Sequence record: PQ409239.1
DNA from: Klebsiella phage vB_KpnP_PW7
Length of the DNA stretch: 64,000 nt
Direction: 5' to 3' (one strand)
Made by a program: the position numbers and the translations under genes. Below are positions 29,139-49,663 of the stretch, piece after piece. Numbering within the stretch: position 1 is the first letter of the stretch; each line of letters starts with the position of its first letter. The notes below the pieces were generated by a model, which had not been told where the DNA came from, did no database searches, and saw nothing but the letters and a program-made list of their open reading frames with translations.

Positions 29139-30093
29139 CCACAACGTATCCCTGCCATTGGCAGTATGGCTTATGCATGACGAGTATGACTACGTTAATG
29201 AGAAAAAGTACATCTCAGCGACTACTCTGCTTAAACCGCTTAAGCATATTGTAATGGCTCACCGTGTGGATAAATCCAAGCTTTCTATGGATATCATGGA
29301 CCTGGTATCTACCTCCATGGGTAGTGGTTTGCATGGTTCCATTGAAAAAGCCTGGTATGAGGGCCACCAGCAAGCACTGACGAAGCTGGGTTATCCCAAG
29401 AAGGTTGTCGAATCTGTAGTCATCAACCCAACCGAAGAAGACTTTGCTAAGAACCCGGATATTATCCCCGTTTACATTGAGCAACGTGCTACCAAGAAGA
29501 TTGGTGGTTGGACTATTGGTGGTAAATTCGACATTGTCACTGAAGGCTTACTACAGGATGTTAAGTCCACTTCGACTTACACCTGGACTAATGGTGGACG
29601 TGATGATGAACACAAGATGCAGGGTAGTATCTATCGTTGGTTGCATGATACCAAGATTACAGAAGATATTATTCGCATTAATTACATCTTCACAGACTGG
29701 CAAAAGGCACTAGCTAAGCCAGAGTCAAACTACCCTCAGCATCGTGTGATGCACAAAGACATCCCACTGCTTTCTTACAAAGCAACGGAAGAGTGGATTA
29801 AGCGTAAGCTTGAGCTAATCGACCGTTACTGGGATGCACCGGAATCTGAGATTCCTGAGTGTACGGACGAAGAGTTGTGGAAGACTGACCCTGTTTATAA
29901 GTACTTCTCCGATGTAGAGAAGGCTAAGGAACCAGGGGCAAGAAGTACCAAGAATTTTACTGACCTGATTGATGCCAGGACATTCATGGCAAGCAAGGGT
30001 AAGGGGACAATTATTGTTGTTCCTGGGGAAGTTAAACGCTGCAACTACTGCCCAGTAGCTACAATTTGCAAACAAAGAGAGAGATACATCTAA
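29122..30093 (+). CDS. PD-(D/E)XK nuclease with C-terminal Cys cluster (Cas4/RecB-like exonuclease)
   Basis: GGKFDIVTEGLLQDVKS (D...E.K) and C-terminal CNYCPVATIC. Confidence 0.5.
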   Translation: MKITNNHNVSLPLAVWLMHDEYDYVNEKKYISATTLLKPLKHIVMAHRVDKSKLSMDIMDLVSTSMGSGLHGSIEKAWYEGHQQALTKLGYPKKVVESVVINPTEEDFAKNPDIIPVYIEQRATKKIGGWTIGGKFDIVTEGLLQDVKSTSTYTWTNGGRDDEHKMQGSIYRWLHDTKITEDIIRINYIFTDWQKALAKPESNYPQHRVMHKDIPLLSYKATEEWIKRKLELIDRYWDAPESEIPECTDEELWKTDPVYKYFSDVEKAKEPGARSTKNFTDLIDARTFMASKGKGTIIVVPGEVKRCNYCPVATICKQRERYI

Positions 30094-32240
30094 TGATTGA
30101 CCTTACTGGAGTCACTCATCATCCGGCTCTTGAAGAAATCGTAGACGTCCTGTGTAACAAGACACAGAACAATGACCGTGGTTTCTTCAGGGTGGAAGTG
30201 GCTTACTTTTTAGCAAAAATGGCATCCTGTATGGGTGCAACTATCGTCACTAAAGACCGTGGTGATATTCCCGTTAATATCTACGCTATGGCTCTGGCAA
30301 CTTCTGGCTTCGGTAAGGGTCATTCTGTAAATATCATCGAAGACGGTTTCATGATGGGCTTCAAGAAGCGTTTCATGGAAGACACTATGCCCACTATCGC
30401 AGAGAAGAACCTCTGGAAGATTGCCAATGAGCGAGCAGCTCGTAATGGTACCGACCAGCAGGAAGAATTCGAAAAGGTAGAGGCAGAGTATCGCAGAGCA
30501 GGTGCTTATCCGTATACGTTTGACTCTGGTACACCACCAGCTGTTAAACAGTTACGGCACAAGCTGCTGATGGCTAACTGTGGCTCAATCAACCTTCAGA
30601 TTGATGAAATTGGCTCTAACTTACTTGCAAACCTGGACGTATTAACCCTGTTCCTTGAGTTGTATGACCAAGGCAAGGTTAAACCTAAGCTGACCAAGAA
30701 CACGGCTGAAAGCGTCCGTGGTGAAGACCTGGAAGGTAAGACACCTACTAACATGCTTTTGTTTGGTACCCCAAGCAAACTGTTGGACGGTGGACAGATT
30801 GAAGACATGTACTATGCAATGCTCGACACTGGCTATGCTCGTCGTTGCTTGTTTGCATTTGGGCATATCGACAAGAAAGCATTTAACATGCTTACGCCAG
30901 AAGAAATCTATATCAACCTCACAAAAGCTAACAATAACCAGTTAGTGAACCAATGGGCTAATCACTTTACGTCCTTGGCAGACCCTACCCATTTCGGGTG
31001 GAAGATGGCTGTCGAAGATGATGTGGGTATTGAACTCATTCGTTATAAGAGTGAGTGTGATAAAGCAGCAGATGCTATGGCTGACCACGAAGAAATTCGT
31101 AAAGCCGAGATGATGCACCGTTACTTTAAAGCTCTCAAGCTGGCTGGTGCATACGCATTTGTTGACCAAAGCCTCATCGTTGAAATGGAACACCTGAAGC
31201 AAGCAATTCTGCTTGTAGAAGAATCAGGTAAAGCTTTCCAAAGCATCCTCAACCGTGAAAAGGCTTATGTAAAACTGGCTAAGTACATTGCTTCAGTTGG
31301 TTCAGAAGTAACTCACGCAGACTTACTCGAAGCCTTGCCTTTCTACCCTAAAGGCAATGCAGCTCGTAACGAGATGGTCACTTTGGCAACAGCCTGGGGC
31401 TATAAGCAGCACATCATTATCAAGAAGACCTATAACGAAGGTATTGAGTTCTATCGTGGGGAAACCCTAAAAGAGACTGATATCAACGAAATGGTTATCT
31501 CCTATAGTGATAACTGGGCTTATAACTACTCTGGTGAAAGGGTACCTTTTGACCAGCTTCACGTATTGACCCAGCACGAAGATATGCACTGGTGTAACCA
31601 CCATTTCCGTAAGGAGCATCGTGCAGAAGAGAACGTTATTGCTGGCTTCAACATGATTGTTATTGACGTGGACGGTACGATTAGTCGTGATATCTGTCAT
31701 GAACTCATGAAAGACTATCGCTTTATGACGTATACCACTAAACGTCACACGGAAGAAGCGAACCGCTTCCGTCTCATACTTCCTATGAACTATTACCTGG
31801 AGTTAGACGGGGAAGAGTACAAGGAATTTATGAATAACGTTATGGCCTGGTTACCGTTTGAAACGGATGAATCAGCCAACCAGCGTGCTAAAAAGTGGAT
31901 GTCTTGCTCTACTGGTACTTACCACTACAACCTCGAAGCCCCACTTCTGGATGTACGTGACTTCATTCCTCGAACCAGTAAGAACGAAGCTTTCCACAAT
32001 CACATGCAGCAGGTGCAAAGCCTGGATAATCTCGAAAGATGGTTTGCTGGACGTATTGCAAATGGTAACCGTAACAACCACATGATTAAGTATGCCCTGG
32101 CTCTCGTAGACAGTGGCAAAGACTTCAATGAGGTTAGTACGTTAGTACATGCATTCAACAAGAAGCTGAGTAATCCACTCGATGCTGATGAGTTGAATAG
32201 CACTGTGTTGGTCACAGCAGCAAAACGTTATAGCTCCTAA
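30093..32240 (+). CDS. DNA primase (N4 gp43-like; possible primase-polymerase-type hhhDhD motif)
   Basis: 715 aa at the N4 primase position; NMIVIDVDG motif; start ATG overlaps the upstream stop (TAATG). Confidence 0.45.
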   Translation: MIDLTGVTHHPALEEIVDVLCNKTQNNDRGFFRVEVAYFLAKMASCMGATIVTKDRGDIPVNIYAMALATSGFGKGHSVNIIEDGFMMGFKKRFMEDTMPTIAEKNLWKIANERAARNGTDQQEEFEKVEAEYRRAGAYPYTFDSGTPPAVKQLRHKLLMANCGSINLQIDEIGSNLLANLDVLTLFLELYDQGKVKPKLTKNTAESVRGEDLEGKTPTNMLLFGTPSKLLDGGQIEDMYYAMLDTGYARRCLFAFGHIDKKAFNMLTPEEIYINLTKANNNQLVNQWANHFTSLADPTHFGWKMAVEDDVGIELIRYKSECDKAADAMADHEEIRKAEMMHRYFKALKLAGAYAFVDQSLIVEMEHLKQAILLVEESGKAFQSILNREKAYVKLAKYIASVGSEVTHADLLEALPFYPKGNAARNEMVTLATAWGYKQHIIIKKTYNEGIEFYRGETLKETDINEMVISYSDNWAYNYSGERVPFDQLHVLTQHEDMHWCNHHFRKEHRAEENVIAGFNMIVIDVDGTISRDICHELMKDYRFMTYTTKRHTEEANRFRLILPMNYYLELDGEEYKEFMNNVMAWLPFETDESANQRAKKWMSCSTGTYHYNLEAPLLDVRDFIPRTSKNEAFHNHMQQVQSLDNLERWFAGRIANGNRNNHMIKYALALVDSGKDFNEVSTLVHAFNKKLSNPLDADELNSTVLVTAAKRYSS

Positions 32241-33893: not shown

Positions 33894-34450
33894 TGAAAAT
33901 ACCCGTGCTAGGTTGTGACCCCAGTTTTCGTAACTGGGGATTAGCACGGGGAATGCTGGACCTAAACACGGGCATCTTTACAGACGTAGAGTTACTACTT
34001 GTAGAAACCAAACCAGATGACACCAAGCAGGTACGCAAGAACAGCAGAGACATTGCTCGTTGCGTAGATATCACCTCTGGTGTTGTCGACTGGTTCAAGT
34101 GGGCAACTGTAGTCTTCGTAGAGGTGCCCGTTGGTTCGCAGAGTGCCAACGGAATGAAATCATACGGTGTATGTGTTGGTATTCTGGGTGCATTCCGTGC
34201 AATGGGTATTCAGCTAATTGAAGTTAATCCCTCCGAAAATAAGCTGGCCCTTACCGGTTGTAAGACAGCAAGTAAAGACTCAATGATTCAAGCAGCCCAA
34301 TCGTTTTATCCGGAAGCTAACTGGCTTCGTGATAGTAAAGGAAAGCTGCTTAATAAGAATGAGCACTTAGCTGATGCAATTGGTTCTATTCATGCAGGTG
34401 TAAATACACCAGCATTCCAGACAATTTTAAAGTTATATGAAAAGGTATAA
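33893..34450 (+). CDS. RuvC-like Holliday-junction resolvase
   Basis: N-terminal VLGCDPSFRNWGLA (RuvC GxDPG motif). Confidence 0.5.
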   Translation: MKIPVLGCDPSFRNWGLARGMLDLNTGIFTDVELLLVETKPDDTKQVRKNSRDIARCVDITSGVVDWFKWATVVFVEVPVGSQSANGMKSYGVCVGILGAFRAMGIQLIEVNPSENKLALTGCKTASKDSMIQAAQSFYPEANWLRDSKGKLLNKNEHLADAIGSIHAGVNTPAFQTILKLYEKV

Positions 34451-35388: not shown

Positions 35389-35460
35389 GGTGAGTTAGCT
35401 AATTGGTGAAGCGGCTGACTGTTAATCAGTGACAGAGTGGTTCGAGTCCACTACTCACCG
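35389..35460 (+). tRNA. tRNA-Asn (anticodon GTT), CCA encoded
   Basis: Acceptor GGTGAGT/ACTCACC, anticodon loop CTGTTAA, T-arm AGTGG-TTCGAGT-CCACT, then GCCA. Confidence 0.8.
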
Positions 35461-35467
35461 CCATATA

Positions 35468-35539
35468 GGGCAGTAGGCGATGTAGGGTTATGCGCCACGA
35501 CACAGGTCGTGAACATCGGTTCGAGTCCGATACTGTCCA
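35468..35539 (+). tRNA. tRNA-like element with non-canonical D/anticodon arms (possible pseudo-tRNA)
   Basis: Acceptor GGGCAGT/ACTGTCC (one G-U), T-arm ATCGG-TTCGAGT-CCGAT, CCA encoded; hand-folding finds only a 6-nt loop (CACAGG) between CACGA/TCGTG. Confidence 0.35.
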
Positions 35540-35546
35540 CCACTAT

Positions 35547-35620
35547 CGGAGTTTAGCTCAGTTTGGCAGAGCACCTGGTTTGGGACCAGGGGGTCGTAGG
35601 TTCAAGTCCTACAATTCCGA
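35547..35620 (+). tRNA. tRNA-Pro (anticodon TGG), CCA encoded
   Basis: Acceptor CGGAGTT/AATTCCG, D-arm GCTC-AGTTTGGCA-GAGC, anticodon loop TTTGGGA, T-arm GTAGG-TTCAAGT-CCTAC. Confidence 0.85.
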
Positions 35621-35631
35621 CCAAATTCTAT

Positions 35632-35705
35632 TGGGGTATCGCCAAGTTGGTTAAGGCATCGGACTTTGATTCCGACATTCGCAAGTTCGAATCTTGCTAC
35701 CCCTG
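35632..35705 (+). tRNA. tRNA-Gln (anticodon TTG), CCA encoded
   Basis: UGGGGUA 5' end as in E. coli tRNA-Gln; anticodon stem TCGGA/TCCGA, loop CTTTGAT; T-arm GCAAG-TTCGAAT-CTTGC; position 1-72 is a U-U mismatch. Confidence 0.8.
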
Positions 35706-35721
35706 CCAGTTTTATATAAAT

Positions 35722-35877: not shown

Positions 35878-36149
35878 TTTGATAGTTTTCGTGGGCGATT
35901 ATGCGGTTTTTTAGAAACGAACCAATAACATAAATGCAAACGATGATGTTGTTCTGATGGTTGCTTAATTGCATAACCATTAGTCAGGAGTGAGTCGTCC
36001 TGATTATCAAACGACCATGGAGTGTCCCCGTCCGTGTATTAGAAACGGGGAACCAATATTACTGGTTGCACGAGATGGCCTGGCATGTTCAGGTCAGGAC
36101 TAAGTGTGACGCCGCTAGATTGGAGAACTGCTGCGGTAAGCTATAGACT

Positions 36150-36183
36150 CCAACCGGAGGTTCGAATCCTTCACCAGTAACCA
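36150..36183 (+). ncRNA. tRNA-like 3' half (T-arm GGAGG-TTCGAAT-CCTTC, acceptor ACCAGTA, discriminator A, CCA); 5' boundary unresolved
   Basis: Canonical T-loop and encoded CCA; the only matching 5' acceptor (TACTGGT) lies about 120 nt upstream at 36060, so the element is either intron-containing/atypical or a fragment. Confidence 0.3.
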
Positions 36184-36622: not shown

Positions 36623-36697
36623 GGTGAGGTTCACCTTCACTAGCGTGATTGGTTCACGAGAGACTTAGTACCGTAGGTTCAATTCCTACCCTTGCCA
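36623..36697 (+). ncRNA. tRNA-like element (acceptor GGTGAGG/CCTTGCC, T-arm GTAGG-TTCAATT-CCTAC), internal arms non-canonical
   Basis: 75 nt; overlaps a second T-arm-like motif GTGG-TTCGACT-CCAC at 36606..36620. Confidence 0.3.
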
Positions 36698-37285: not shown

Positions 37286-37348
37286 AAGCCCCCTTTAGGA
37301 ACGGATGGAGCCAATACCATCTCAAGCCGACAAGGGGGCTTTTTTATT
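37286..37348 (+). terminator. terminator closing the RNA-gene block (10-bp stem AAGCCCCCTT/AAGGGGGCTT, structured loop, TTTTTTATTT)
   Basis: Strong GC stem followed by a T-tract; overlaps the ORF-track start of the next gene, whose start was therefore moved. Confidence 0.5.
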
Positions 37349-37376: not shown

Positions 37377-37799
37377 ATGGACTTAGAACAAGAGATTCAA
37401 AACAAGGGTGCTAACGTAGCTCCCCGAATTACTCCTTCCCATATTGAAGACTGTATTGCCAGTGTTCATTTCTTCACAGCAGCAGATGGTGCGACAGCTG
37501 TTATGGGTGACAGCGATACCATTAGCAATGACAGCCTACAGTCACTTAAGCTGCTGACTATCTGCGTGATGGTTCTGAAAAACGGCTTTACTGTTGTTGG
37601 TAAGTCTGCCTGTGCATCCCCAGAGAACTACAATGCTGACATCGGTAAAGACGTTGCCTGGCGTGATGCCAAAGAACAGATTTGGCCACTTGAGGGCTAT
37701 CTGCTGAAGCAGAATCTGTACGAGCAGAAGCAGAGCCAGGATATGCTGAAAGGCTTCCTGGAAGATGACAACTGTGATGGTGGGGGTTGTAAGATATGA
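37377..37799 (+). CDS. hypothetical protein
   Basis: Start at MDLEQE downstream of the terminator. Confidence 0.45.
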   Translation: MDLEQEIQNKGANVAPRITPSHIEDCIASVHFFTAADGATAVMGDSDTISNDSLQSLKLLTICVMVLKNGFTVVGKSACASPENYNADIGKDVAWRDAKEQIWPLEGYLLKQNLYEQKQSQDMLKGFLEDDNCDGGGCKI

Positions 37800-37953
37800 T
37801 GCAAACCACCTATTCCAGCAGGGATGGGTGGGAGTCTTTCATATCCTACAGAAATGTTGCTTGTTACAGGATGTGGGGACACGTTAAGCCCACCAAAAAA
37901 CAAATACGTAAGTTCATGAAAAAACTACGCGTAAAGATTCAAAGGAATCAGTA

Positions 37954-38448
37954 ATGGACACTAAGATTAACTTCCGTAACTACATTGGTACCAAAAGCTT
38001 ATTAGCTTTCCCAATGACCAAAGGTGATTACTGTAAGCTTCGTAACTGGGACTTACCGTCTAACGAGGAACCAGAAGAGGAAGGATACTTGGTTGAATAC
38101 CCCGACTCACTGTCCAATCATCCGGACTTCCGTGGCTACATCTCATGGTCACCAAAAGCTGTTTTTGAAGCAGCATATAATAGCTACACAGAGGGTTGTA
38201 CCTTTGGTCAAGCTATCGAGTTGCTTAAAGCAGGTCACCGAATGGCCCGTAAGGGTTGGAATGGAATTGGTATGTACATCACCTATGTACCTGCTGAAGA
38301 ATGGGCGAGTAGTGCATTAGAACGTCCATGGTCACATGACCTTAAGCCAATCCCATGGATTGGGATGAAGACAGTAGGTGATACCTTTGTACCGTGGTTA
38401 GCCTCTCAGTCTGATATTCTGGCAGAAGACTGGGTATTAGCAGAATAG
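37954..38448 (+). CDS. DUF2829-domain protein (Tad2-like, candidate anti-Thoeris sponge) with about 70-aa N-terminal extension
   Basis: FGQAIELLKAGHRMARKGWNG.GMYI and C-terminal VPWLASQSDILAEDWVL match the DUF2829 hallmarks as recalled (...LK.GKKV.RKGWNG... / ...PWlaSQtDlLAEDWei). Confidence 0.55.
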   Translation: MDTKINFRNYIGTKSLLAFPMTKGDYCKLRNWDLPSNEEPEEEGYLVEYPDSLSNHPDFRGYISWSPKAVFEAAYNSYTEGCTFGQAIELLKAGHRMARKGWNGIGMYITYVPAEEWASSALERPWSHDLKPIPWIGMKTVGDTFVPWLASQSDILAEDWVLAE

Positions 38449-38456
38449 GAACCATT

Positions 38457-38660
38457 ATGAACAAAGAGTTATTTCCACACCAGCAACGCATTATAGAGGA
38501 ACTTGAAGAATTGAAGACTAAGATTGAAAAACTTACAGTCTTCATGACTACTCCCTTATATGCTGGACTTTCTGCAAGTGACCGTAACCTACTTAATATT
38601 CAACTGAGTGCAATGAAGACTTACGGTTACGTTCTTGAACTTCGCATTGAGAAGTTTTAG
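38457..38660 (+). CDS. hypothetical small protein (coiled-coil)
   Basis: 67-aa ORF. Confidence 0.35.
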   Translation: MNKELFPHQQRIIEELEELKTKIEKLTVFMTTPLYAGLSASDRNLLNIQLSAMKTYGYVLELRIEKF

Positions 38661-38670
38661 GGAGCCAGTG

Positions 38671-38919
38671 ATGGAAATCAATCCAGTTATTGGTTTTGCT
38701 AGTGTAAAGGTAGTGACCAAAGGGGGTAAGTTTATCAGTAAACCTACCTACCTGCATCGTTTACCTGTAGGAGAAAGTGAAGACTCAATTGATATCAATA
38801 AGATTGAAAATGAGTTGTTAACTGGGCTGCGTAAAGTAGTAGAGCAGCATCCACCCACAGAGTACGAAAGTAACTTTGGCTACTACCTAGAATACACCAA
38901 GGCAAGTTATCCCAAATGA
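38671..38919 (+). CDS. hypothetical small protein
   Basis: Start MEINPVIG with RBS AGGGAG. Confidence 0.35.
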   Translation: MEINPVIGFASVKVVTKGGKFISKPTYLHRLPVGESEDSIDINKIENELLTGLRKVVEQHPPTEYESNFGYYLEYTKASYPK

Positions 38920-38926: not shown

Positions 38927-39160
38927 ATGGGAGAATTCTTTAAGAAAGGCTCTATTGTACCGAAGAGACTAGGCTTAGCAGATATACCGAAAAAAGTTAG
39001 ACATCAATTAATATTTAATTGTAACTGTATAGTAGTAGGCAAGGTAATAATGCCACTTAAACGAGATGAACCTGTCTTTTTCTTAAAAGCTGGGGGAGTC
39101 AAAAAACTCAGTTACATCAAGTTTAAAAACATCAGTATATCAACAATACTTTGTGTATAA
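38927..39160 (+). CDS. hypothetical small protein
   Basis: 77 aa, last forward-strand ORF. Confidence 0.3.
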   Translation: MGEFFKKGSIVPKRLGLADIPKKVRHQLIFNCNCIVVGKVIMPLKRDEPVFFLKAGGVKKLSYIKFKNISISTILCV

Positions 39161-39161: not shown

Positions 39162-39192
39162 AAAAGCCCCTCTATTGAGGGGCTTATTTTTT
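39162..39192. terminator. bidirectional rho-independent terminator at the convergent strand switch
   Basis: AAGCCCCTC tatt GAGGGGCTT flanked by AAAA on the left and TTTTTT on the right; separates the forward-strand genes from the reverse-strand vRNAP stop. Confidence 0.75.
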
Positions 39193-42100
39193 AATTTACC
39201 AGGTTATGCCATGGGTTAAGGCTAGGTGCTCGTAAGCCCTGACCAAACCCGAAGGAATAATCCAGTCTGCCATCTGCCATCAGGCTAAACATGTTGTCCT
39301 GAATAGGCAGACCTACATTACCAAACATGGTAGGAGCAGGAACCACGGTAGCAATCAGCGAGTGCACTGGGTTGTTACGAATCATGGATACTGCAACCTT
39401 AGCTGAACGAATCTTAAAGTTGTAGAACCACATAAGACCCATGCTTTCCATATAACCACGGAAACGACCAGGTAGACGGTCATAGTTAACAAACTCTTCC
39501 GTAACACGACCAAGTGCTTCTGCTTTGCCCATCTTCTTACGCTTAGTCAGGTCATCATAGATGATTGCTTTAGCGATAAAGTCAGAGTACTCAACAGTTT
39601 TCTGAATACCTTGGAACAGTGCAGTATCCTTGGTAATGAGTGCGTAACGACCAGCAGTACGTAAACCTTTAGGCAGCTTGTTAGCCAGCTGGTCAATGTA
39701 CTGGTGCAGCTTACCTTCGGTAATGAGAATCTCATCACGACCGATACCAGAGTCAGCGATAGAAGAGAACTCACCACGTTCAATCAGAGGCCAAATCGAC
39801 ATACGCTTGTGGCTGTCAGTAATAGACTGAATCTCAGCTTCAAGCTTACGTGACTGGTTCGGATTGGTAGAGGCACGTAATTCCGCTTCTGCTTCAATCT
39901 GACGAATACGGCTTTTAAGATACTGGTTAATCTCACTGGTTTTACGAGGAAGGTTAACAGCAATATCCTTAACCGGTACACCACGACCAATCATCTGATA
40001 GATGTTAGCCAGGAAGTTAACAGCAGGAACCACCATAGACTTAACAACAATCAGAGTCTTGGCATCCTTAACAGCACTCTGAATAGTATTCTCAGCATTC
40101 ATCATGTAACGGTAAGCTTTGTTACCGAATGCACCAATGAACATCTTCTTAACGGTGTCCAGAGTTTCATCATTCCAACGACTATTACCAGTCCATGCAT
40201 CACCTACAGAAGCAGAGCGATAACCGAATGCATCATTTAGCATGTCACGGCGTACCCACAACTGATTCTCACCAAAGAGACTTTCAGCCTTTTTACGAGT
40301 CTCAAGGTTCATCAGCTTAACAGCATCAGACAATACAGCATCGTTAGTCTGGCCAAATACATTGACGTACTGAGACTGGTTAGAAGAAGACTCTTTCAGG
40401 TCAGCTTCATACATGTCATGCAGACGTTCAATGAGTGCATCGTTGTAAGCCTGTGCTTTAGCCTCTTCTACCTGACGACCACGCCATACGCCAACCATCT
40501 TAGCGAAGTGGTTATCCTGGTTCAGATGCTTAAGCATATCCGGGTTAACAGAACGCTCATACGCTACCACCATGCCCTTATCATCGTAGATTGGTAACAG
40601 AGGCTCATCACCACGCTCACCACGTGCCATAGCCTTCTGGATGCGTTTTACAGTGTGCATATCTGTAATACGCCCAGCTACCATAGTGTTCATGGTGAAG
40701 CCAGTTCCTACGTCTACTCCATTAGCAGTGTCACGAACGTTTTGCAGGATACCCTGACTAAACGGAGCACGTGCAGCCACAGGACTGAAGTAGTAACCAC
40801 GGCTGGCTTTATTAGTGTCAGCTGAGGAACCAGTGTAAGTACCTACACGAACGTAGGAACGCTCATTGAGTAACCCAAAGTCACCATCTTCAGCTACGAT
40901 GAGGTTAACGCCCTGTTGCTGCATAGTAGGGATGTAACCTTTGTAGCTGTTCAGTTTGGTACGTGGGTCACTGTTAGCCTTACGTACTTCTTCCACACGC
41001 TGGCCTACCATGTAAGACAGAGAGAAATCCATACCTTCAACTTCGCTTTGAGCCAGGGAAGAGAGAATATCCCGGTCAGCCTTGTTCATGGTTTCCAGTG
41101 CATAGAGAGTAATCAGCTTATCCAGTGCAGCTACATCTACAGTTGATTTAGCAGCAGTACGTTCACCGAGCAAACGACTAATAGCGTATGCGTTACGGAG
41201 TAAGTTATTACCTACCACACCGGTAATCATGTACTTAGCTAACTGCTTAGACTTACGTTCAATGAGTCCCCAGTTACGACCAGCTTGGGCAGACAAGCTT
41301 GCTTCCAGCTTATTGATTTCTGCATCAACAAGTTTGCTGTCAGACAGCAGGTCACGGATATCACCCATGCTCATGGTTTCACGCAAAACAGCAAGGTCAG
41401 TTTTACCCAAACCAGTGTGCATTGCTCCCCACTCTTCTTTGCTGAGTTCACGGGTAAACTTCTCAGCAATAATAGTTGGAAGGTTTTCACGGAACTGCTG
41501 ACGGTCTTGTTGAATCTGAGAACGAACAGCTTTAATCATGTCGTAGACATTAGCGTTAGTCTTAGTACGACCAACAATATCGTTAACCAGGTCATGGAAA
41601 GGTTTCCATACTTTACCCTGGTTCATAGCAGCCATCACACCCTGTGCAACCTTCTCCCCGTTCTTCTCTGTGGCAACAGCAGCAACAAGCTGTGCAGCAT
41701 GTGCAGTAGCTTTGACCAGTGGATTACTGGTATTAGCTGCCACATCACGAGCACGGTCCAGAGTAGCATCAGCCAGACGCTCTACCCCATCAATCACATA
41801 CTGATTAGCACGGTCAATCATACTGCCAGTAGGGTTAGCTACTGAGTCATAGAACGACTCACGGTTAAGAGAAGCTTCCGTTATACGGTTAGTCAGTGCA
41901 TCAATGCTTTCTTGTACATTCTGAGACTTATTATCACCAGCCAGACGAGTATTAAGGGATTCCATTGCCTGAGTACCAGCATTGGTCAGGATATTGTCCA
42001 GAGTGTTATTCAGTTTAAGGTCAGCTTTAGGTACAGGCATCTTTTCCAATACAGCACGGAATTCATCGTTAACCATAGCCAGCCCCATGAACACAGGCAG

Positions 42101-45100
42101 CAGAGTAGAACGACCTTGTTTATCAGTACCAGCAATATTGGTACCAAGTACAGTGTTGAACTTCTCCTGTGCATAGTAACGGTCAGCCGGGTCAGTGCTA
42201 TCTGGATTACTCATAAAGTCTTCCACCTTCAGGTTTTTAGACACATGAGCAAACAGCTCCTGAGCACGTGACATAGCTAATGAGTCAATCTGTGCTTCAG
42301 TAGCCATAGCAGCTACAACCATCTGGAACACTGACTGTTCTTGCATGGTCATAGGGAAACCATGAGCCTGTACAGAACGAGTCATACTGGTAGCCAGCAT
42401 CAGTGCATCTTGCACCTTACCTTTACGCTCAATCTGGTCAACTGGGCTAACACGCAAGTAGTTAGTAACCAGGTTATCAAACGTTTTGTTCAGCTCAGTA
42501 AGACGGTCATTGTTACCGTAGGTAGTGTTATGGAACAGGGTACCATCGGTAGCAGTAGCCTGAGTTGTAGGCTGACTACGCATAAGTACAGCACTGTTAA
42601 ACAGCAGATTGCTAAACATGTCATCTGCTACTTTCGGTGCAACCTTACGCCCCCAAATCAGTTTCTTAATTGCTGCATAAACGTCTTTAGCAATTCGAAC
42701 CACGGAAAGGGTTGTCTTCTGTTTCATAGTCAGAGCACGGTTAGTCAAACCCCATGCCATGAACTCGTTAACAGCAGCAGCCTTAGCTAAACCTGGTTCT
42801 ACAAAACCGTTATTAAGATGTCCGTCAATGGTATACAAGGCATCTTCATAGGCATCACGCATTGCTGGATTTTCCCGTGACATATCCAGATTACGGAATT
42901 GCTCCATAAGTTGCTCAATGTTTTCCACAGCATCTTTAACAGTTGGGTCAGAATTCTCGTTGCTATAATGAGCAAGCACTTTTTCAAACGTAGCAGCGTG
43001 AACCAACTCATGAACAAGAGTTTCCATTGATGGACTAACCAGATAAATAGTCTGGTCATCAAAGTTAGTCCAACCATGGATATCACCTTCTTGAGCAGCT
43101 TCCATTTCCTGAGAAGACAATTCAGTCAGGTTCTTCTCTTTGGCGTATGCAGACAACTGAGCAGGTGTACCGTAGATAACCTTATAGTCTTTAGCTGATA
43201 GAGACTTTTGAATCTCGTTAAGGACAGCAGACTGTTCAGCAGTCATCTTCATAGCTTTAGCCAAATTGCTAATAGCTGTGTTAGATAGAATACGTACACC
43301 AGTCTTATGAGCACGGCCTACAGTATCAAAGCCTACCTCTGGTTTAGCCTTAACAGGTTTGGTAGCAGATTTGCGAGACTGAAGCTCTTCGTCAAACAGA
43401 CGGTTGAGTTCAGCTACTTGCTCATCAACAGTCATGTTACTCAGGTCAATCTTCCCTTGGTTCACATAAGGAGCACCAACAGCAGCCATCTGGTCAACAG
43501 TGGTCTGTACCTTATCCATTATCTTGTGGCGAATATCTACACCCAGGGCAATATTACGAAGGTTACGTTCGATTTGTGCACTAGCAGCCTGAATATCATC
43601 AATGGTTGCTTTTTCACGTTCTGTGAATTCCAGAGCAGACGCTTTAATTGCATCAATTGCTTCTGGAGACAGCTCGTTAAAGTCAACGTTCTTCATGAAC
43701 TTAGCGAAAGAGTCATAAACGTTTTTAATTGGGTTGCCTTGCCAAGAGGTGTATACAGCCTCGTTAGCTTTACGGGAAGCATCCTCAATATCGTTCAGAC
43801 CAATGTTCATACCATCAAAGATTTTCAGAGTGTTCTTTGGTGCACCCTTCATAGTAGACAGGGTCTGCATCATCATCCCATCACCAGTACCAATGGTCAT
43901 GAATGGGATACCAGCAACGCCAGCCTGAGAAGGTGCGTAGATGCTCATAGGAACACGCATACGGTCATCGAGATTAGTAGCCAAAACTTGGTTAGCCACT
44001 TCACTGTTTTCTGAACCAGCAATATAGAAAGTCTGGGAACCAGTCTCAATCATTGGGGCCAGATTGTTCAGTGATGCCTGAATGTCGTTAAGTTCTTTCT
44101 GAGTAAGGAAATCACCCTTCTTCCATGTTGGGTCTTTTTCTTTTTCCAGAAGCTTTGCTTGAACACGCTGTTTGAACAGGTCTTCCAGTACCACAGACTG
44201 AATCTGAGTAGCCTTCTGAAGTTGTTCAGTAGAGAACATCAGACCTTGCCCAACAGTCTGGCTAATACCTTCTCTCATTGGTTCAACGAAGAAGTGCAGC
44301 ATGTTTTCCTGCAAGGCTTTAAGTTGCTCACCCTGTACAGTGAATTTTTGTGGGTTCAGTTTACCCTTCATGCCTGGACCTGCTTCTTCAATCTGAAGAA
44401 CGTTCTTACGCTTAACAGGGATAGCAGAAGTAAGTGCATCCATATCAGCAAGAAAACGCTTAAGCATTTGTTCAGCATGCTCTTCAGAAGCAGCCTGTTT
44501 ACCGAACATTGCCATAGCAGCAGATACATTAGGATTGTTGGCACGTGCCTGGAGAACGTCAGACATACGCTCATAGATAGCATCAGTAATTGCACTAACC
44601 ATCTTCCCTGCAATACCACGAGCACCGGAACCATAGATGGTAATGGTCAGTGGATTCTTAGCAATACCACGCTTAAGCTCAAGGGTACCGTCCTCACGCA
44701 AAGTAAGGTCAGGCAGGAACAAATCCATCAGTGAAGTCAGATGATTCATCTGAGTACTGATAGAAGGGTTACTAGCATAGCTATTACGCAGAGCAGTAAG
44801 AGATGCTTTCAGTGCATTAGTAGAGGCTTCATAAAGGTCTACGCTGTCATCAATAGAACGATGTTCGTTCATTGTCTTACCAGCTTTACCGAAGAATAAA
44901 CCACCCTTAGCAACGTTAGTCAGCCACTCTTTAGAAAACTTACCACCAGTCATCAATACCATTGCGTTGATAGGGCCGTTAGTAACACCGTCAGCTTCTA
45001 CATACAGTGGAGTATTGAATGCTGATTTATCCTCTGCATTCAAATAACGGGCATATTCCATCAGAGCCATGAGGGCTACGAAAGACTTATCACCACCCAG

Positions 45101-48100
45101 TGCAGTATTCAGGATTTCAACGGAGTTATCTGGTAAGGAACCAGTCTTGTTGAAATCAACCATCATATCTACAGCAGGTTTCAGTTTAACCTCCAGAGCA
45201 GCAGTCAGCTTCTGTGCCATGGCATCCCGACTCATGTTATGAACCTTAATACCAAGTGCCTGAGCCAGCCCTAACTGGAATGCTGAGAAGTCAGCAGAGT
45301 TCTGAGAAGACAAGTCCAGAGTAGCTTTAGTAGGCAGAATAGCCTCACGAACCAGTTTGGCTGATTGTGGGTTGTACTTACCTAACATCTGCATACGCCC
45401 AACACGGGTCATGTTGTAACCGTAGTGGATTGGAACCTCTGAGATATTCTCAGACTGAGCACGTACCTGGTTAATAACGTTAAACAGATGGTCATAAGAT
45501 GCAGCTACGGAAAGGTTTTTACCTTCCATAGAACGAGCAGTGTTTACGTTAAGCAGTTCAGGATTAACGGTACCAGCACCTAACAGAGCAAGGATGTTGT
45601 CACGTCCCATGGCTTCATAGAAGTTAACCATTGGCTCATGTACAAAGAACTCAGTCTCTTGTTCTGCTTTAAGGGCTTTACGCTGTTCGGGAGTATTCTG
45701 CACAGCTGGGTTACGTAACTGATTACGAGGCACAGCAGGTATATCATCACCAAAGTAAATCTTCTCTTCTGGTTCTACCAATACAGCTTCTTCAATAGCA
45801 GTAGGGAACTTATTGATTGGGTCGGCTTCATCCAGTTTAGAGATAGAGTACAGACCAACAGTCTTATTGTTGTCCGGGTCAAACTCATTCATGTTGATGA
45901 TGGTTTCTGTAACGTCACCAGACTCAACAAAAGCAGCCAGCATTTCAGCAGCCATAGCAGCAGGAATACCTTTAGTGTAACCCAGTGGTGCATTAGGGTT
46001 ACGCTCTAATCCCCAGTAAGACTCAATCTTTTGAGCCAAGGAGTTAGTAGCTTCAACCAGAGTCATACCATTTTCAAAGGTTTCAACGAGGCCATCCGGT
46101 AACAGGGATTGGTCCATACCGGTAATAGCAGCTACGTCTTTAGCATCTTTGATGGCAGAGTTCTGTACAGCAGTGAGTCGCCATTGCAGACCAGCAAGTA
46201 CAGCAGTCTGTAGCAGTTCCTCATTGTATTTGAAGGTATCACCATCTTGCTCAACGATGTTAAGCAGCTTACCACCTACCCAACGGTTAGCTTCTGTACC
46301 CTCAGCAAAACGCTTACCAACGTTCTTGTTAGAGAGGAATTTCTCCATACGATTACGCAGTAAATCAGCAATACCCTCACCATGTTTCATCAGGTCACTG
46401 TAGCGTTTAGCCACATCACTGGTGAATGCTGGGTTAGCTTCGTCCTGATTTACGTATACTTCGTAACGAGCACGAGAAGACAGTGCCTTAGTCAGGTCAC
46501 TCAGTGGGGACTCAGAGCCTACGGTACGAGACTTAGGTTCTGCTGGTACGTTGAAAGACTTAACAAAGTAGTTGGTAACCTTCTCTGAGGAATACAGATT
46601 AGGGTACACAGCAGCAGTACCTTCTTTATTTTCAGTAGGTTGAGTGGTGGTATCCTCATTAGCGAGGGTAGCATCAGATTCAGCAGGTTCTACCTTTTCA
46701 GGTGTAGTCTTAGTTACTTTCTCTTCTTGTACGCTAACCTCTTTAACAGGAGTAGTATTTTCTACCACTGGTTCTGTTACAGTAGGTTTGGCCTCCTGAG
46801 TTTGTGCAGGAGATTCTTTAACCTGATTCACCGGTTGGGCAGTCTGTTGAGATGAGGCAGCGTCACGATTGCTTTGACGGAAAGCCTTAACCACCTGAGC
46901 AGCTGTATCGTTCAGACGTGAATCCAAAGAGGTAACTTCGATATGAGGAACTTTCAGCTCCGGGTAAGCCGAGGCGAGAGCATTGGCAATATCGCCTACG
47001 GTTTTAGCTTCAAGCCCTACCTGTTGGGCAAACTTAACAGACTTGGTATCGTAGGGATTGACACCAAGACCGGTACGACTACGAACCCATTCACGGGAGG
47101 GCGTGAGAGCCTGATAATGGACAGACTTATTCTTATCCGCATTCCCAGAAACAAGATGCTCGTTCAACGCTCCAACCTTATTGCTCATGTGCTGGGCGAA
47201 TTGCATAAAGTCGTTGAGGTAAGCGGCGGCGAGGTCGAGGTTACCAGAGTTATACGCAGACCGAATACGCTGAGCATGCTGCAACGCAGAGTACTGACCT
47301 TCCTCCGTTCTACTCTCATCGGTTTTAATCTGCTTACCCACAATGTCTTGAGGGCGAAGACCTAAGCGTTCAGCTTCGGTATCGAACTCACGAGCACCTT
47401 TCAAGAGGGCAGCAGCAGTAGTTAATGCAGCCCTCTGACGGTTATTCAGCTGAATACGACCTTCACTAGCATGTTTAAGAACCATGTCCACTGATTCAGG
47501 GGAAAGTTTTTCAGGAGCAACCTGTGCAGCCATTGCTACGTTATTAACTTCCTGCTGAGTAGGATTCTCACCAACTTCCAGTTTGCCTTGTTCTGCTGCC
47601 TCAGTAACCATACGGTTAATAGCACGGAAAGCACGAGCAACCTTTGGAGTATTCTGAATGTTGGCGATAAGGCCAGAGTACTGGTCAAGTACAGCATTAG
47701 CTGGTGAGTCGCTAGGCAGGTTATTCAGAGCAGCCGGGTCACGGTTTACAAACTCTTCAAAGCCCATTACCCCATCATACAGATAAGAGGCAGCAGTCAT
47801 CAGTGCCTGTGGGTCAGTCTCTTCTGTAGAGTTAACCAGGTCTGCTAATTTCTGAATAGCTTCTACACGGTTAGTGGAACCAGTGACAGCAGCTTTAACT
47901 GCATCTGGTGCATCAGCATATTCAGCTTCATCAAAACGAGTAGCATTAACCAGGTCAGAAGCATAACGGTAAGCAGCTTCTTTCTGTTCCGGGGTAGCAT
48001 CAGTTTCGTTAACAGCAGTGTACAGTGTCTCTTCTGCATTAGCAGCCTGTGCTGTGGCTTCCTGTGCAGCAGCCTGAACGGTTTCGTCAGCTACAGGGGA

Positions 48101-49606
48101 TGCTTGTTCGTTCTGTTGCATTACTCGCTCACCACGGGCTACCAGAGCGTCACGCAGTGGTTTAGTAGCAGCAGACCCAACATTACCTACAGCACGCAAA
48201 CCAGCCATAGTAGTACGAATGGCAGGAGACAGAGCAGCACCCACAGCCTTACCAGCAGCACCAGGAGCTTGTACAACCCCAGCAGCACCAAAGCCATAGA
48301 GAGCACCCAAGCCAAGCTGTTCACCAACACCTTTAGCCAGGTCTTGGTTTTTATCGATGTTCTGCTTTTGTGCAATGTTTTGAGACAGTTGACCAGTGGC
48401 ACCTTGAATACCCTCTTCAATAGTCTCACGACCCATGTTGCTAACTGCTGAACCAAGGGAACCTACACGCATTGGAGCCGTCTCAAAACGAGATACCAAT
48501 GGGCCAGTAGCAGCAGCAATAGGGAATTGAATAGCAGCAGCATCAATACCAGTTTCAGATGCAGTCTGACGACGTGCTTCATCAGGAGACATACCATCAG
48601 CAATGTGCTGTTGGTATACAGGAGATTTAACTAGCAGTTCCTGGTGAGGCATCTTAAGGATGTCACTGGCAGTCTGTTGGTAGACACCACCAGCTTCCAT
48701 TGCACCAATACCTAGCATGCCAGGTGCAACACGACCCGCTTTATCCAGAGCAGCAACACCAATACGAGCCAGTGAGTTAGTACCACTAGCAGCATCGATT
48801 GCAGCAGCTACACGAGCACCCTGTACAGCACGAGTACCAGTAACTACTTTACCAAGGGCATTGATACCTTTAATGATTGGGCCAGCAGCAAACAGGGAAC
48901 CTACACCTTCAGCCAGACCATCAGTTAAAGCAGTACCGTCTTGCATGACGTTACCAACAGAATCCAGTGCATCACGCCCAACAAGAGACAGTGCAGCAAT
49001 GGTAGGGTTAGTACCATCTTTAATATCTTGTTTGTACTGGTTCTCGTTTTCCAGTGCAGTAATCTGACCCTGAGAAGCAACGACCTTACGGCGAGCATTC
49101 AAAGCATCACTCTGTGTAGAGTGTACCCAATCACCCAGGTTACCTAGTTGCTCGGATGCCCAAGCACCAGCATTATCGTTGACCAAGCCTGCCCCAAGAG
49201 CAGCAATACCCCCAAGGGTATTACCAAGACCAAGAGCAACACCAGAAGCAGTGTCAATGGCTCCACGCCCCGGAGTACGTTCAATAGTCTTATCACGGTA
49301 TACCTGGTCAGCAGCATTAGCCCTCTGATTAATAAGTTGAGTACCTTGTTCGATACCATACTTATTAATGAGTTCTAATGGGGAAAGGTTAGTAAAGTCG
49401 GATGCAATAGAACCTTGCTCAAAGGCACCAGTTCCTAGATTTCCAACGCGTCCAGCCTGAAGCTGGTAGGCGTTATCTTGAGAGATAGGAGTAGGGATGA
49501 TACCTTGCTCTGCCTTCTTCTGGTCGGTTGCAGTAGAGACGCTAACTTGCTTGGCATTGGTTACGCTGTCTGCAAACCCAGCCAGTCTGTCAAATGTTGA
49601 CATGGT
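39191..49606 (-). CDS. virion-encapsidated giant RNA polymerase (N4 gp50-like vRNAP)
   Basis: Single ORF of about 3470 aa (a 3.5-kaa protein is diagnostic of N4-like phages), last gene of the late strand; start moved to MSTFDRL with RBS AGGAAA. Confidence 0.8.
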   Translation of the reverse strand, partial: TMSTFDRLAGFADSVTNAKQVSVSTATDQKKAEQGIIPTPISQDNAYQLQAGRVGNLGTGAFEQGSIASDFTNLSPLELINKYGIEQGTQLINQRANAADQVYRDKTIERTPGRGAIDTASGVALGLGNTLGGIAALGAGLVNDNAGAWASEQLGNLGDWVHSTQSDALNARRKVVASQGQITALENENQYKQDIKDGTNPTIAALSLVGRDALDSVGNVMQDGTALTDGLAEGVGSLFAAGPIIKGINALGKVVTGTRAVQGARVAAAIDAASGTNSLARIGVAALDKAGRVAPGMLGIGAMEAGGVYQQTASDILKMPHQELLVKSPVYQQHIADGMSPDEARRQTASETGIDAAAIQFPIAAATGPLVSRFETAPMRVGSLGSAVSNMGRETIEEGIQGATGQLSQNIAQKQNIDKNQDLAKGVGEQLGLGALYGFGAAGVVQAPGAAGKAVGAALSPAIRTTMAGLRAVGNVGSAATKPLRDALVARGERVMQQNEQASPVADETVQAAAQEATAQAANAEETLYTAVNETDATPEQKEAAYRYASDLVNATRFDEAEYADAPDAVKAAVTGSTNRVEAIQKLADLVNSTEETDPQALMTAASYLYDGVMGFEEFVNRDPAALNNLPSDSPANAVLDQYSGLIANIQNTPKVARAFRAINRMVTEAAEQGKLEVGENPTQQEVNNVAMAAQVAPEKLSPESVDMVLKHASEGRIQLNNRQRAALTTAAALLKGAREFDTEAERLGLRPQDIVGKQIKTDESRTEEGQYSALQHAQRIRSAYNSGNLDLAAAYLNDFMQFAQHMSNKVGALNEHLVSGNADKNKSVHYQALTPSREWVRSRTGLGVNPYDTKSVKFAQQVGLEAKTVGDIANALASAYPELKVPHIEVTSLDSRLNDTAAQVVKAFRQSNRDAASSQQTAQPVNQVKESPAQTQEAKPTVTEPVVENTTPVKEVSVQEEKVTKTTPEKVEPAESDATLANEDTTTQPTENKEGTAAVYPNLYSSEKVTNYFVKSFNVPAEPKSRTVGSESPLSDLTKALSSRARYEVYVNQDEANPAFTSDVAKRYSDLMKHGEGIADLLRNRMEKFLSNKNVGKRFAEGTEANRWVGGKLLNIVEQDGDTFKYNEELLQTAVLAGLQWRLTAVQNSAIKDAKDVAAITGMDQSLLPDGLVETFENGMTLVEATNSLAQKIESYWGLERNPNAPLGYTKGIPAAMAAEMLAAFVESGDVTETIINMNEFDPDNNKTVGLYSISKLDEADPINKFPTAIEEAVLVEPEEKIYFGDDIPAVPRNQLRNPAVQNTPEQRKALKAEQETEFFVHEPMVNFYEAMGRDNILALLGAGTVNPELLNVNTARSMEGKNLSVAASYDHLFNVINQVRAQSENISEVPIHYGYNMTRVGRMQMLGKYNPQSAKLVREAILPTKATLDLSSQNSADFSAFQLGLAQALGIKVHNMSRDAMAQKLTAALEVKLKPAVDMMVDFNKTGSLPDNSVEILNTALGGDKSFVALMALMEYARYLNAEDKSAFNTPLYVEADGVTNGPINAMVLMTGGKFSKEWLTNVAKGGLFFGKAGKTMNEHRSIDDSVDLYEASTNALKASLTALRNSYASNPSISTQMNHLTSLMDLFLPDLTLREDGTLELKRGIAKNPLTITIYGSGARGIAGKMVSAITDAIYERMSDVLQARANNPNVSAAMAMFGKQAASEEHAEQMLKRFLADMDALTSAIPVKRKNVLQIEEAGPGMKGKLNPQKFTVQGEQLKALQENMLHFFVEPMREGISQTVGQGLMFSTEQLQKATQIQSVVLEDLFKQRVQAKLLEKEKDPTWKKGDFLTQKELNDIQASLNNLAPMIETGSQTFYIAGSENSEVANQVLATNLDDRMRVPMSIYAPSQAGVAGIPFMTIGTGDGMMMQTLSTMKGAPKNTLKIFDGMNIGLNDIEDASRKANEAVYTSWQGNPIKNVYDSFAKFMKNVDFNELSPEAIDAIKASALEFTEREKATIDDIQAASAQIERNLRNIALGVDIRHKIMDKVQTTVDQMAAVGAPYVNQGKIDLSNMTVDEQVAELNRLFDEELQSRKSATKPVKAKPEVGFDTVGRAHKTGVRILSNTAISNLAKAMKMTAEQSAVLNEIQKSLSAKDYKVIYGTPAQLSAYAKEKNLTELSSQEMEAAQEGDIHGWTNFDDQTIYLVSPSMETLVHELVHAATFEKVLAHYSNENSDPTVKDAVENIEQLMEQFRNLDMSRENPAMRDAYEDALYTIDGHLNNGFVEPGLAKAAAVNEFMAWGLTNRALTMKQKTTLSVVRIAKDVYAAIKKLIWGRKVAPKVADDMFSNLLFNSAVLMRSQPTTQATATDGTLFHNTTYGNNDRLTELNKTFDNLVTNYLRVSPVDQIERKGKVQDALMLATSMTRSVQAHGFPMTMQEQSVFQMVVAAMATEAQIDSLAMSRAQELFAHVSKNLKVEDFMSNPDSTDPADRYYAQEKFNTVLGTNIAGTDKQGRSTLLPVFMGLAMVNDEFRAVLEKMPVPKADLKLNNTLDNILTNAGTQAMESLNTRLAGDNKSQNVQESIDALTNRITEASLNRESFYDSVANPTGSMIDRANQYVIDGVERLADATLDRARDVAANTSNPLVKATAHAAQLVAAVATEKNGEKVAQGVMAAMNQGKVWKPFHDLVNDIVGRTKTNANVYDMIKAVRSQIQQDRQQFRENLPTIIAEKFTRELSKEEWGAMHTGLGKTDLAVLRETMSMGDIRDLLSDSKLVDAEINKLEASLSAQAGRNWGLIERKSKQLAKYMITGVVGNNLLRNAYAISRLLGERTAAKSTVDVAALDKLITLYALETMNKADRDILSSLAQSEVEGMDFSLSYMVGQRVEEVRKANSDPRTKLNSYKGYIPTMQQQGVNLIVAEDGDFGLLNERSYVRVGTYTGSSADTNKASRGYYFSPVAARAPFSQGILQNVRDTANGVDVGTGFTMNTMVAGRITDMHTVKRIQKAMARGERGDEPLLPIYDDKGMVVAYERSVNPDMLKHLNQDNHFAKMVGVWRGRQVEEAKAQAYNDALIERLHDMYEADLKESSSNQSQYVNVFGQTNDAVLSDAVKLMNLETRKKAESLFGENQLWVRRDMLNDAFGYRSASVGDAWTGNSRWNDETLDTVKKMFIGAFGNKAYRYMMNAENTIQSAVKDAKTLIVVKSMVVPAVNFLANIYQMIGRGVPVKDIAVNLPRKTSEINQYLKSRIRQIEAEAELRASTNPNQSRKLEAEIQSITDSHKRMSIWPLIERGEFSSIADSGIGRDEILITEGKLHQYIDQLANKLPKGLRTAGRYALITKDTALFQGIQKTVEYSDFIAKAIIYDDLTKRKKMGKAEALGRVTEEFVNYDRLPGRFRGYMESMGLMWFYNFKIRSAKVAVSMIRNNPVHSLIATVVPAPTMFGNVGLPIQDNMFSLMADGRLDYSFGFGQGLRAPSLNPWHNLVN

Positions 49607-49663
49607 AGGTTTCCTATTCAAACTTATATCTATTAGAGAACACACTATATACAAAGTGTGAGC

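Follow-up and report, generated by a model that had tools for sequence, protein, structure and literature searches.

Several proteins of the Tad2/DUF2829 family have solved structures. SPO1 Tad2 (PDB 8SME/8SMF/8SMG), the founding Thoeris type I sponge, has 89 amino acids and no N-terminal domain. HgmTad2/AcrIIA7 from a human gut metagenome (PDB 8KBI-8KBM) is a single-domain protein of about 103 residues, in which a 41-residue insertion forms a pocket for cyclic GG (cGG) or cyclic GMP-AMP (cGAMP). ModTad2 (PDB 9EIB), also single-domain, is a sponge for His-ADP-ribose (His-ADPR) and in addition binds cyclic UMP (cUMP). Here we describe a Tad2-like gene in Klebsiella phage vB_KpnP_PW7 (record PQ409239.1), within a stretch of 64,000 nucleotides (nt) that is referred to below as the window. 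The protein has two domains, as does gp49 of phage N4 (YP_950527), and both genes lie directly after an Acb4 gene (gp48 in N4) or, in the window, one small gene further on. We consider it likely that this ortholog of N4 gp49 is an anti-immune-signalling protein, built from a Tad2 sponge and an accessory N-terminal domain and encoded in an operon of sponges. The gene and its parts are as follows.

37954..38448, + strand: Tad2-like gene, N4 gp49 ortholog; ATG start, TAG stop, 164 residues, two domains
37966..38187, + strand: N-terminal domain (N-domain), residues 5-78, with the motifs YIGTK, GYLVEY, NHP and GYISWSPK..FE.AY
38194..38445, + strand: Tad2/DUF2829 domain, residues 81-164, with a conserved pocket for signals derived from ADP-ribose (ADPR)
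38287..38355, + strand: hypervariable insertion loop, residues 112-134, between Tad2 core strands; short, of the SPO1 type

The original prediction, made from the letters and their translated open reading frames (ORFs), placed a 164-residue DUF2829 protein at exactly 37954-38448 on the + strand, and the two family motifs that it quoted are both present (GQAIELLKAGHRMARKGWNGIGMYI, residues 85-109; VPWLASQSDILAEDWVL, residues 146-162). Its family assignment was borne out by the Pfam profile PF11195, which matches residues 83-162 over profile positions 2-72 of 73 (E=2.3e-23; 82.9 bits against a cutoff of 25), well above anything attributable to chance, and judged by sequence the protein is a member of Tad2/DUF2829. 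The profile phrog_872 spans all 164 residues (E=2.6e-61). Searched with phmmer against PDB sequences, the protein is closest to ModTad2 (E=5e-17) and also matches pdAcrIIA7 (9kzr, E=1.7e-14), SPO1 Tad2 (E=2.8e-9), HgmTad2/AcrIIA7, SptTad2 and the Tad2 entry 8v3e; five Tad2 structures are matched in all. It is 36% identical to the SPO1-type homolog SBSphiC. An AlphaFold2 model of the whole protein (predicted local distance difference test, pLDDT, 88.6; predicted template modelling score, pTM, 0.75) contains the Tad2 fold, an N-terminal helix plus an antiparallel sheet, which can be superposed on the solved Tad2 structures. The fold comparison that had been proposed thus came out in favour of the assignment, although the reference protein then called an HgmA-type sponge is correctly named HgmTad2.

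The ligand pocket is retained, with its WNG and W-x-x-S-x-T/S-D motifs. Its residues (W102, N103 and G104; M138, T140, T144 and V146; W148, L149, S151, S153 and D154) occupy positions that are invariant in 54 homologs. Ten of the 12 contacts that HgmTad2 makes with glycocyclic ADPR (gcADPR; PMC10680739) are identical, namely W21, N22, G23, M76, T82, V84, W87, L88, S90 and D93, which correspond here to W102, N103, G104, M138, T144, V146, W148, L149, S151 and D154; the remaining two are conservative exchanges (A78 to T140 and T92 to S153). The direct contacts of SPO1 Tad2 (bioRxiv 2023.05.01.538930) were numbered by reference to PDB 8sme and mapped through the alignment with SBSphiC. Identity extends to W25, N26, W73 and D79; T65 is unchanged, and the exchanges T78 to S and I63 to M are conservative.

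By analogy with the solved Tad2 proteins, the C-terminal domain would assemble into a homotetramer, and its inter-protomer pockets would sequester an ADP-ribose-derived alarm molecule made by Toll/interleukin-1 receptor (TIR) proteins. This is most likely 3' cyclic ADPR (3'cADPR, or 1''-3' gcADPR), the signal of type I Thoeris, so that the effector ThsA would never be activated. The N-domain would most likely be an accessory module that helps the sponge to dimerise or assemble. The protein would be co-expressed, from a packed operon, with an Acb4 homolog directed at the cyclic dinucleotides of cyclic oligonucleotide-based antiphage signalling (CBASS) and with a Sequestin homolog directed at 3'cADPR. 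The original proposal of a candidate Thoeris-signal sponge is therefore backed by sequence, fold and pocket residues, while gcADPR as its ligand is what we infer from the pocket, and of the gcADPR signals 3'cADPR is probably the one bound.

Several points weigh against a tetrameric 3'cADPR sponge. The tetramer is drawn from analogy, and here an N-terminal domain of 80 residues is attached. Depending on the homolog, Tad2 proteins inhibit differing combinations of Thoeris types I, II and IV, CBASS and Pycsar, and ligands across the family include 3'cADPR, His-ADPR, N7-cADPR, cyclic dinucleotides, and cUMP or cyclic CMP (cCMP) (PMC12393519); membership of the family therefore does not fix the ligand. 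ModTad2, the best sequence match in the PDB, is a His-ADPR binder with no inhibitory effect on type I Thoeris. In SPO1 Tad2, D67 and H71 coordinate water; G142 and V146 take their places here, and the whole protein is acidic, with an isoelectric point (pI) of 4.9. The adjacent Sequestin homolog could already cover 3'cADPR, which would favour a complementary ligand for the Tad2 protein. In the literature searched we found no binding or anti-defence test of this protein, of N4 gp49 or of any other two-domain Tad2, a search that did not extend to the sequences of the 18 homologs tested in PMC12393519.

These observations lead to a second reading of the pocket, in which the Tad2 domain takes up another signal, His-ADPR (type II), N7-cADPR (type IV) or several at once, and so complements the Sequestin homolog. 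There are indeed Tad2 homologs that act on all three of Thoeris types I, II and IV (PMC12393519). S153 is common to ModTad2 and the present protein and is a threonine in HgmTad2 and SPO1 Tad2, and the Sequestins tested so far, whose homolog begins just 8 nt downstream, inhibited type I Thoeris only (bioRxiv 2025.07.12.664507). However, ModTad2 is identical to HgmTad2 at six of the 12 gcADPR contacts as against ten here; ModTad2 has L, D, A and T at HgmTad2 positions M76, T82, V84 and L88, whereas the present protein follows HgmTad2. It is by the HgmTad2 comparison, and by that solely, that the ligands are discriminated. N4 and phi1_146050 carry the Tad2 gene without a Sequestin gene, so the two need not be complementary, and redundancy among anti-Thoeris genes is on record for this hotspot in phage Ab09 (bioRxiv 10.64898/2026.06.04.730250). 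We regard another signal as a serious, though less likely, alternative, and keep 3'cADPR as the probable ligand.

The insertion loop bears on a further pocket. The insertion is about 22 residues long, similarly short to that of SPO1 Tad2, compared with 41 in HgmTad2, and the insertion of 35-41 residues that forms the cGG/cGAMP pocket and marks the HgmTad2/SptTad2 subtype is lacking. The residues of that second pocket are likewise absent: R31 is replaced by V112, K46 and S47 fall in the deleted part, F70 is replaced by P132 and N85 lies at a gap. Mean column entropy over the loop is 2.77 bits, versus 0.9-1.2 elsewhere, and pLDDT drops to 52 for residues 121-130. The loop is also mosaic among homologs. 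N-domains that are 98% identical can be paired with loops of 17% identity, and N-domains of 66-69% identity with loops that are 91% identical. This pattern indicates, as far as sequences can, intragenic recombination at the very segment from which other Tad2 proteins build their second ligand pocket. Because the loop is short and hypervariable, the protein probably lacks the second, cyclic-dinucleotide pocket of HgmTad2 and SptTad2.

The DUF2829 domain is shared with AcrIIA7, and the protein might accordingly be read as an anti-CRISPR that binds trans-activating CRISPR RNA (tracrRNA). The phmmer match to pdAcrIIA7 given above fits such a reading, relatives in phi1_146050 and in the Escherichia phage Mimir124 are labelled 'anti-CRISPR protein', and pdAcrIIA7 too carries an extra N-terminal domain (PMC13133391). 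However, this head consists of two long helices and is unrelated to the beta-rich N-domain found here, and the alignment with 9kzr starts at chain residue 46 and so covers the core only. RNA binding by pdAcrIIA7 involves a positively charged groove and occurs only after removal of the head (PMC13133391), whereas the Tad2 half of the present protein is acidic (pI 5.2, versus 7.9 in HgmTad2). The genomic context is one of signalling sponges. To our knowledge Klebsiella and Escherichia coli carry type I and not type II-A CRISPR-Cas systems, and hence offer no tracrRNA target. An anti-CRISPR role is thus most improbable. The 'anti-CRISPR' label is also found on the Acb4 homolog of phi1_146050; on the Tad2 homologs it looks like a legacy transfer from AcrIIA7, and both labels look misleading.

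The N-terminal portion had been described as an extension of about 70 residues with no known affinity. The extension is real, but it measures about 78-80 residues, and it is a folded, conserved domain and not a linker. Modelled alone, the N-domain gives a small beta-rich fold of about 75 residues, ordered b-b-a-b-b-a, with a pLDDT of 90.8; strands in the monomer model are at residues 8-11, 15-22, 43-49 and 62-67, with a short one at about 76-77. It is conserved as strongly as the Tad2 half. Invariant or nearly invariant residues are G12, K14, M21, Y26, R30, W32, P35, E38, G44-Y49 and N55, and further along G61, Y62, S64, W65, S66, P67, F71, A74 and Y75. The N-domain found no family match in Pfam, NCBIfam or PADLOC, and its profile matched no PDB sequence even at E<=10.

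The domain nevertheless has a known relative. RyR Tad (gp68 of Pectobacterium phage CB1) has an N-terminal domain that its authors call a fold of unknown function (bioRxiv 10.64898/2026.06.04.730250), and hhalign pairs the two domains with 96.9% probability (E=1.4e-10, 35% identity over 65 columns). In Foldseek searches of BFVD the N-domain model matched an RyR-domain protein of Yersinia phage TG1 (E=4e-5; query-normalised TM-score, TMq, 0.74), as well as Tad2-fused proteins. By these comparisons the N-domain and its counterpart in RyR Tad are homologous. The two proteins share an architecture in which the N-domain is joined to a sponge, and both are encoded in the same N4-like hotspot; the C-terminal sponge of RyR Tad, however, is an all-helical RyR Repeat12-like domain and not Tad2.

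When 1.84 billion cluster representatives were searched exhaustively with the N-domain profile, 2,925 proteins matched at E<=1e-3, of which 1,385 remain at E<=1e-10. A word-indexed homolog search with the N-domain alone had given 7 matches, reflecting a limit of that method. The architectures of the best 150 of the 2,925 representatives were surveyed, and it is to these that the partner counts and fractions below refer (assignments by Pfam).

Tad2: 46 of 150
Sequestin: 44 of 150
Acb4: 14 of 150
Acb2/Tad1 hairpin (PF24729): 4 of 150
Unrelated partners (WDGH, AP2, HNH): 3 of 150

The N-domain is mostly N-terminal. It stands alone in 10 of the 150, and chains with several sponges are seen (for example Acb4, N-domain and Sequestin in that order). 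Among other N4-like lineages, Pseudomonas phage inbricus encodes N-domain, Acb4 and Sequestin in a single protein, a Rhizobium phage has an Acb4 followed by the N-domain, and Erwinia phage Fifi051 has an 81-residue ORF adjoining the virion RNA polymerase (vRNAP) gene that consists of the N-domain only. On sequence grounds, then, the N-domain accompanies at least five sponge families: Tad2, Sequestin, Acb4, Acb2/Tad1 and RyR Tad. No mention of so systematic an association was found in the literature searched. In about 45 of the 150, tails of 45-215 residues at the C or N terminus have no match to Pfam or to local hidden Markov models; these tails are mostly singletons. Some are divergent or truncated Tad2 domains, and a cluster of six is Acb2-like in sequence, a number consistent with the PF24729 matches, which may be the same proteins. 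By the fusion logic that revealed Sequestin, the tails are leads to further sponge families.

Published sponge-sponge fusions include Acb4-Tad2 (Pasteurella phage Pm86) and Acb4-Sequestin (Pseudomonas phages YH6 and Ab09). In the window, by comparison, Acb4, Tad2 and Sequestin are separate adjacent genes, and the sole fusion is that of Tad2 to the N-domain.

Since the pockets of every sponge family are formed between protomers, at their interfaces, the N-domain most likely has a dimerising accessory role. The single experiment on the domain, with gp68, points the same way: in crystals the gp68 N-domain forms a strand-swapped dimer with a five-stranded sheet, and gp68 residues 1-86 alone had no activity against type I Thoeris, the only type reported (bioRxiv 10.64898/2026.06.04.730250). 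The N-domain could instead be an anti-signalling module in its own right, acting as a sponge of a new kind or by binding a host immune protein, which would be compatible with a Tad2 sponge and would make the protein a dual inhibitor, comparable to the published Acb4-Tad2 and Acb4-Sequestin fusions. Its partners, with so few unrelated ones, show the same fusion signature through which Sequestin was discovered (bioRxiv 2025.07.12.664507), and standalone copies such as that of Fifi051 exist. Polar and aromatic residues are among the most conserved (Y26, R30, W32, E38, E48, Y49, N55, Y62 and W65), and the one N-domain tested, gp68_N, is divergent, being without R30, W32, E38, E48, N55 and Y75, and was assayed against type I Thoeris only. 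However, the N-domain is acidic (pI 4.7), whereas the known sponge pockets are positively charged. We hold it possible, though rather doubtful, that the N-domain is such an independent module marking some 2,900 protein clusters, that the partners of those roughly 45 proteins include further sponge families, and that gp49-type proteins are dual inhibitors. The accessory, dimerising role is the one we prefer.

Two described families were considered as identities for the N-domain and set aside. Lockin is an elongated beta protein that forms cog-like hexamers (bioRxiv 2025.07.12.664507), whereas the N-domain is compact at about 75 residues; Lockin is moreover absent from complete INPHARED phage genomes, in which the N-domain is common and N4 is included. 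An identity with one of Tad3-8 is unlikely, judging by description only, as the authors of the hotspot study list Tad3 yet describe the gp68 N-domain as a fold without a known function.

The region belongs to an N4-like Klebsiella phage, with 89-93% DNA identity to the KP8 group (Schitoviridae, Enquatrovirinae, Kaypoctavirus). N4 gp49, annotated as 'DUF2829 domain-containing protein', is 61% identical over its full length (tblastn) and is the last rightward gene before the vRNAP gene, gp50. The insertion loops of the two proteins differ, and N4 has no DUF7279, Sequestin or 82-residue genes around gp49. By sequence and position the gene is the Kaypoctavirus ortholog of N4 gp49. It had been predicted to fall outside the usual N4-like gene set, and this is not the case: full-length copies occur in 68 phage records (E<=1e-30), nearly all of them enterobacterial N4-like genomes of 70-76 kilobases. 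RefSeq labels several of the 68 as DUF2829, and one record bears the label 'Thoeris anti-defense 2-like'. Tad2 is also listed among the inhibitors of the N4-related phage hotspot (bioRxiv 10.64898/2026.06.04.730250, June 2026). In KP8 a 'rho-independent terminator' is annotated inside the Tad2 coding sequence (KP8 locus 3339-3377, equivalent to about 38292-38330 of the window); our terminator scan did not reproduce it, and the annotation is probably spurious.

Such conservation, next to genes for a single-stranded DNA-binding protein (SSB), a RuvC-like protein and vRNAP, might be expected of a core phage function outside defence, for example an accessory of replication, recombination or the transcription switch. 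However, the same protein is found in unrelated phage types, and phage Ab09 with a deletion across the equivalent hotspot genes gp57-61 still replicates well. We consider a core function very unlikely, and an anti-immune-signalling role remains the preferred one. The genes that surround the Tad2 gene in the window are listed here.

37377..37799, + strand: Acb4-family homolog (PF13876, E=6.8e-29), first gene of the islet
37796..37954, + strand: DUF7279 protein of 52 residues (PF23945, E=1.6e-6), translationally coupled on both sides
38457..38660, + strand: Sequestin homolog of 67 residues (PF21825, E=5.7e-18, 65 bits)
38671..38919, + strand: 82-residue protein (phrog_29724, E=5.4e-50, from residue 13 of a longer ORF), with a GGAG ribosome-binding site; its KP8 ortholog is annotated
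38927..39160, + strand: 77-residue ORF, doubtfully coding (weak match to phrog_29107, E=2.9e-8 over 40 residues); unannotated in KP8
39164..39185, both strands: bidirectional hairpin terminator found by scan, 9-bp stem with 6 GC pairs, facing the vRNAP stop
39191..49654, - strand: vRNAP of 3,487 residues, bounding the hotspot on the right; KP8 and N4 carry the same annotation

The Tad2 gene lies, as was stated originally, between the tRNA block (35389-35708) and the vRNAP gene on the opposite strand. The phrase 'early/late boundary' used for this site was loose. Going by N4 synteny, the gene would end a rightward replication block that converges on a leftward vRNAP operon. The suggestion of an anti-defence islet proved stronger than first proposed, since the neighbours are homologs of two sponge families. 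PF13876 ('N4 Gp49/Sf6 gene 66') is Acb4, a 3'3'-cGAMP sponge (bioRxiv 2024.12.30.630793), and the homolog in the window shares 52% identity with N4 gp48 and matches the Acb4 structure PDB 9e4w (E=6e-4). N4 gp48 itself is a validated Acb4, named Acb4(N4), and is necessary and sufficient for Panoptes triggering (PMC12657230). PF21825 ('crAss001_48') is Sequestin, a family of 3'cADPR sponges that was found through fusions to Tad2 and Acb4 (bioRxiv 2025.07.12.664507).

The Acb4 and DUF7279 genes overlap in ATGA at 37796, and the DUF7279 and Tad2 genes in TAATG at 37954; between the Tad2 stop and the Sequestin ATG is a spacer of 8 nt that contains AGGA. By this layout the Acb4, DUF7279, Tad2, Sequestin and 82-residue genes form a tightly packed operon and would be co-expressed. 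A scan of the islet for sigma-70 promoters gave 0 sites, an uninformative result given that the middle genes of N4-like phages rely on a phage RNA polymerase. The Acb4 homolog probably starts at the ATG at 37377, which has a GAGG Shine-Dalgarno sequence, and not at 37305. A hairpin with a T-run is located at 37324-37341, about 35 nt upstream of the 37377 start and inside the longer ORF from 37305; it may be where transcription of the tRNA unit ends, or may serve regulation in some other way. The DUF7279 and phrog_29724 genes are packed together with the three sponge homologs and by position are candidate anti-defence genes. Neither protein had a family, PADLOC or NCBIfam match that gives a function.

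Most N4-related phages are reported to carry an 'anti-signalling hotspot' between the primase and vRNAP genes, for which Tad2, Tad3, Acb4, Sequestin and Bes1/Bes2 are listed (bioRxiv 10.64898/2026.06.04.730250). The left part of this region is represented in the window by the following genes.

30066..32240, + strand: DNA primase, N4 gp43-like (PriCT_1 and DUF3987), left boundary of the hotspot
32250-33056: AAA_24 protein, N4 gp44-like
33099-33893: ORF at the position of the N4 SSB gene (gp45), with no Pfam match; in relatives, SSB annotations lie adjacent, beside the matches
33893-34450: RuvC-like protein, N4 gp46 ortholog

Genes for a DNA polymerase A, a gp47-like ORF, DUF7740 and the tRNAs are also found upstream. 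The Tad2 gene thus sits between primase and vRNAP, together with a RuvC-like gene, an ORF at the SSB position and the Acb4 and Sequestin homologs, as described for the hotspot. Islet content varies even within the genus. In Klebsiella phage phi1_146050, a near relative, the Tad2 gene is followed directly by the 82-residue gene, with no Sequestin gene between them (locus 2429-3181, compared with 38457-38660 of the window), and the N4 islet consists of gp48 and gp49 only.

The ortholog of N4 gp46 is annotated as a RuvC-like resolvase elsewhere and is 43% identical to the LIT1 'N4 gp46-like protein' (41943-42452), a position that falls within the Ab09 region 41,096-42,899 holding Bes1. Bes1 is a RuvC-like gene for broad evasion of signalling (bioRxiv 10.64898/2026.06.04.730250), and judging by these matches the window probably carries a Bes1 ortholog at 33893-34450. 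Between 35710 and 37300 about 1.6 kilobases are without a convincing ORF, and the ORF translations show 'G.EPT' motifs typical of tRNA T-arms. Rfam gave only sub-threshold tRNA- or tmRNA-like matches there (35881-36173 and 36623-36697), KP8 annotates tRNA-Leu and tRNA-OTHER in the equivalent region, and the segment may consist of degenerate tRNA genes. Within the tRNA block, ARAGORN predicts at 35468-35542 a tRNA with an undetermined two-base anticodon, which Rfam does not report at its gathering threshold and whose KP8 equivalent is labelled 'tRNA-OTHER'.

The sponge families Tad2, Acb4 and Sequestin are well established, and N4-like phages have already been reported to cluster them between primase and vRNAP, so that a Tad2 homolog at this site is expected and not surprising. 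The residual novelty lies in the sponge-associated N-domain and in the ligand. N4-like phages of Klebsiella are candidates for phage therapy, and an operon with three sponges predicts resistance to Thoeris and CBASS, as well as possible sensitivity to sponge detectors of the Panoptes type. The validated N4 Acb4 triggers Panoptes, and experimental work has made use of a Klebsiella system (KP67). With 2,925 clusters, no entry in Pfam and fusions almost exclusively to five sponge families, the N-domain is the part most worth pursuing. Telling an assembly module from an effector in its own right would make clearer how sponges are constructed, and its partners without an assigned family could guide to new sponge families.

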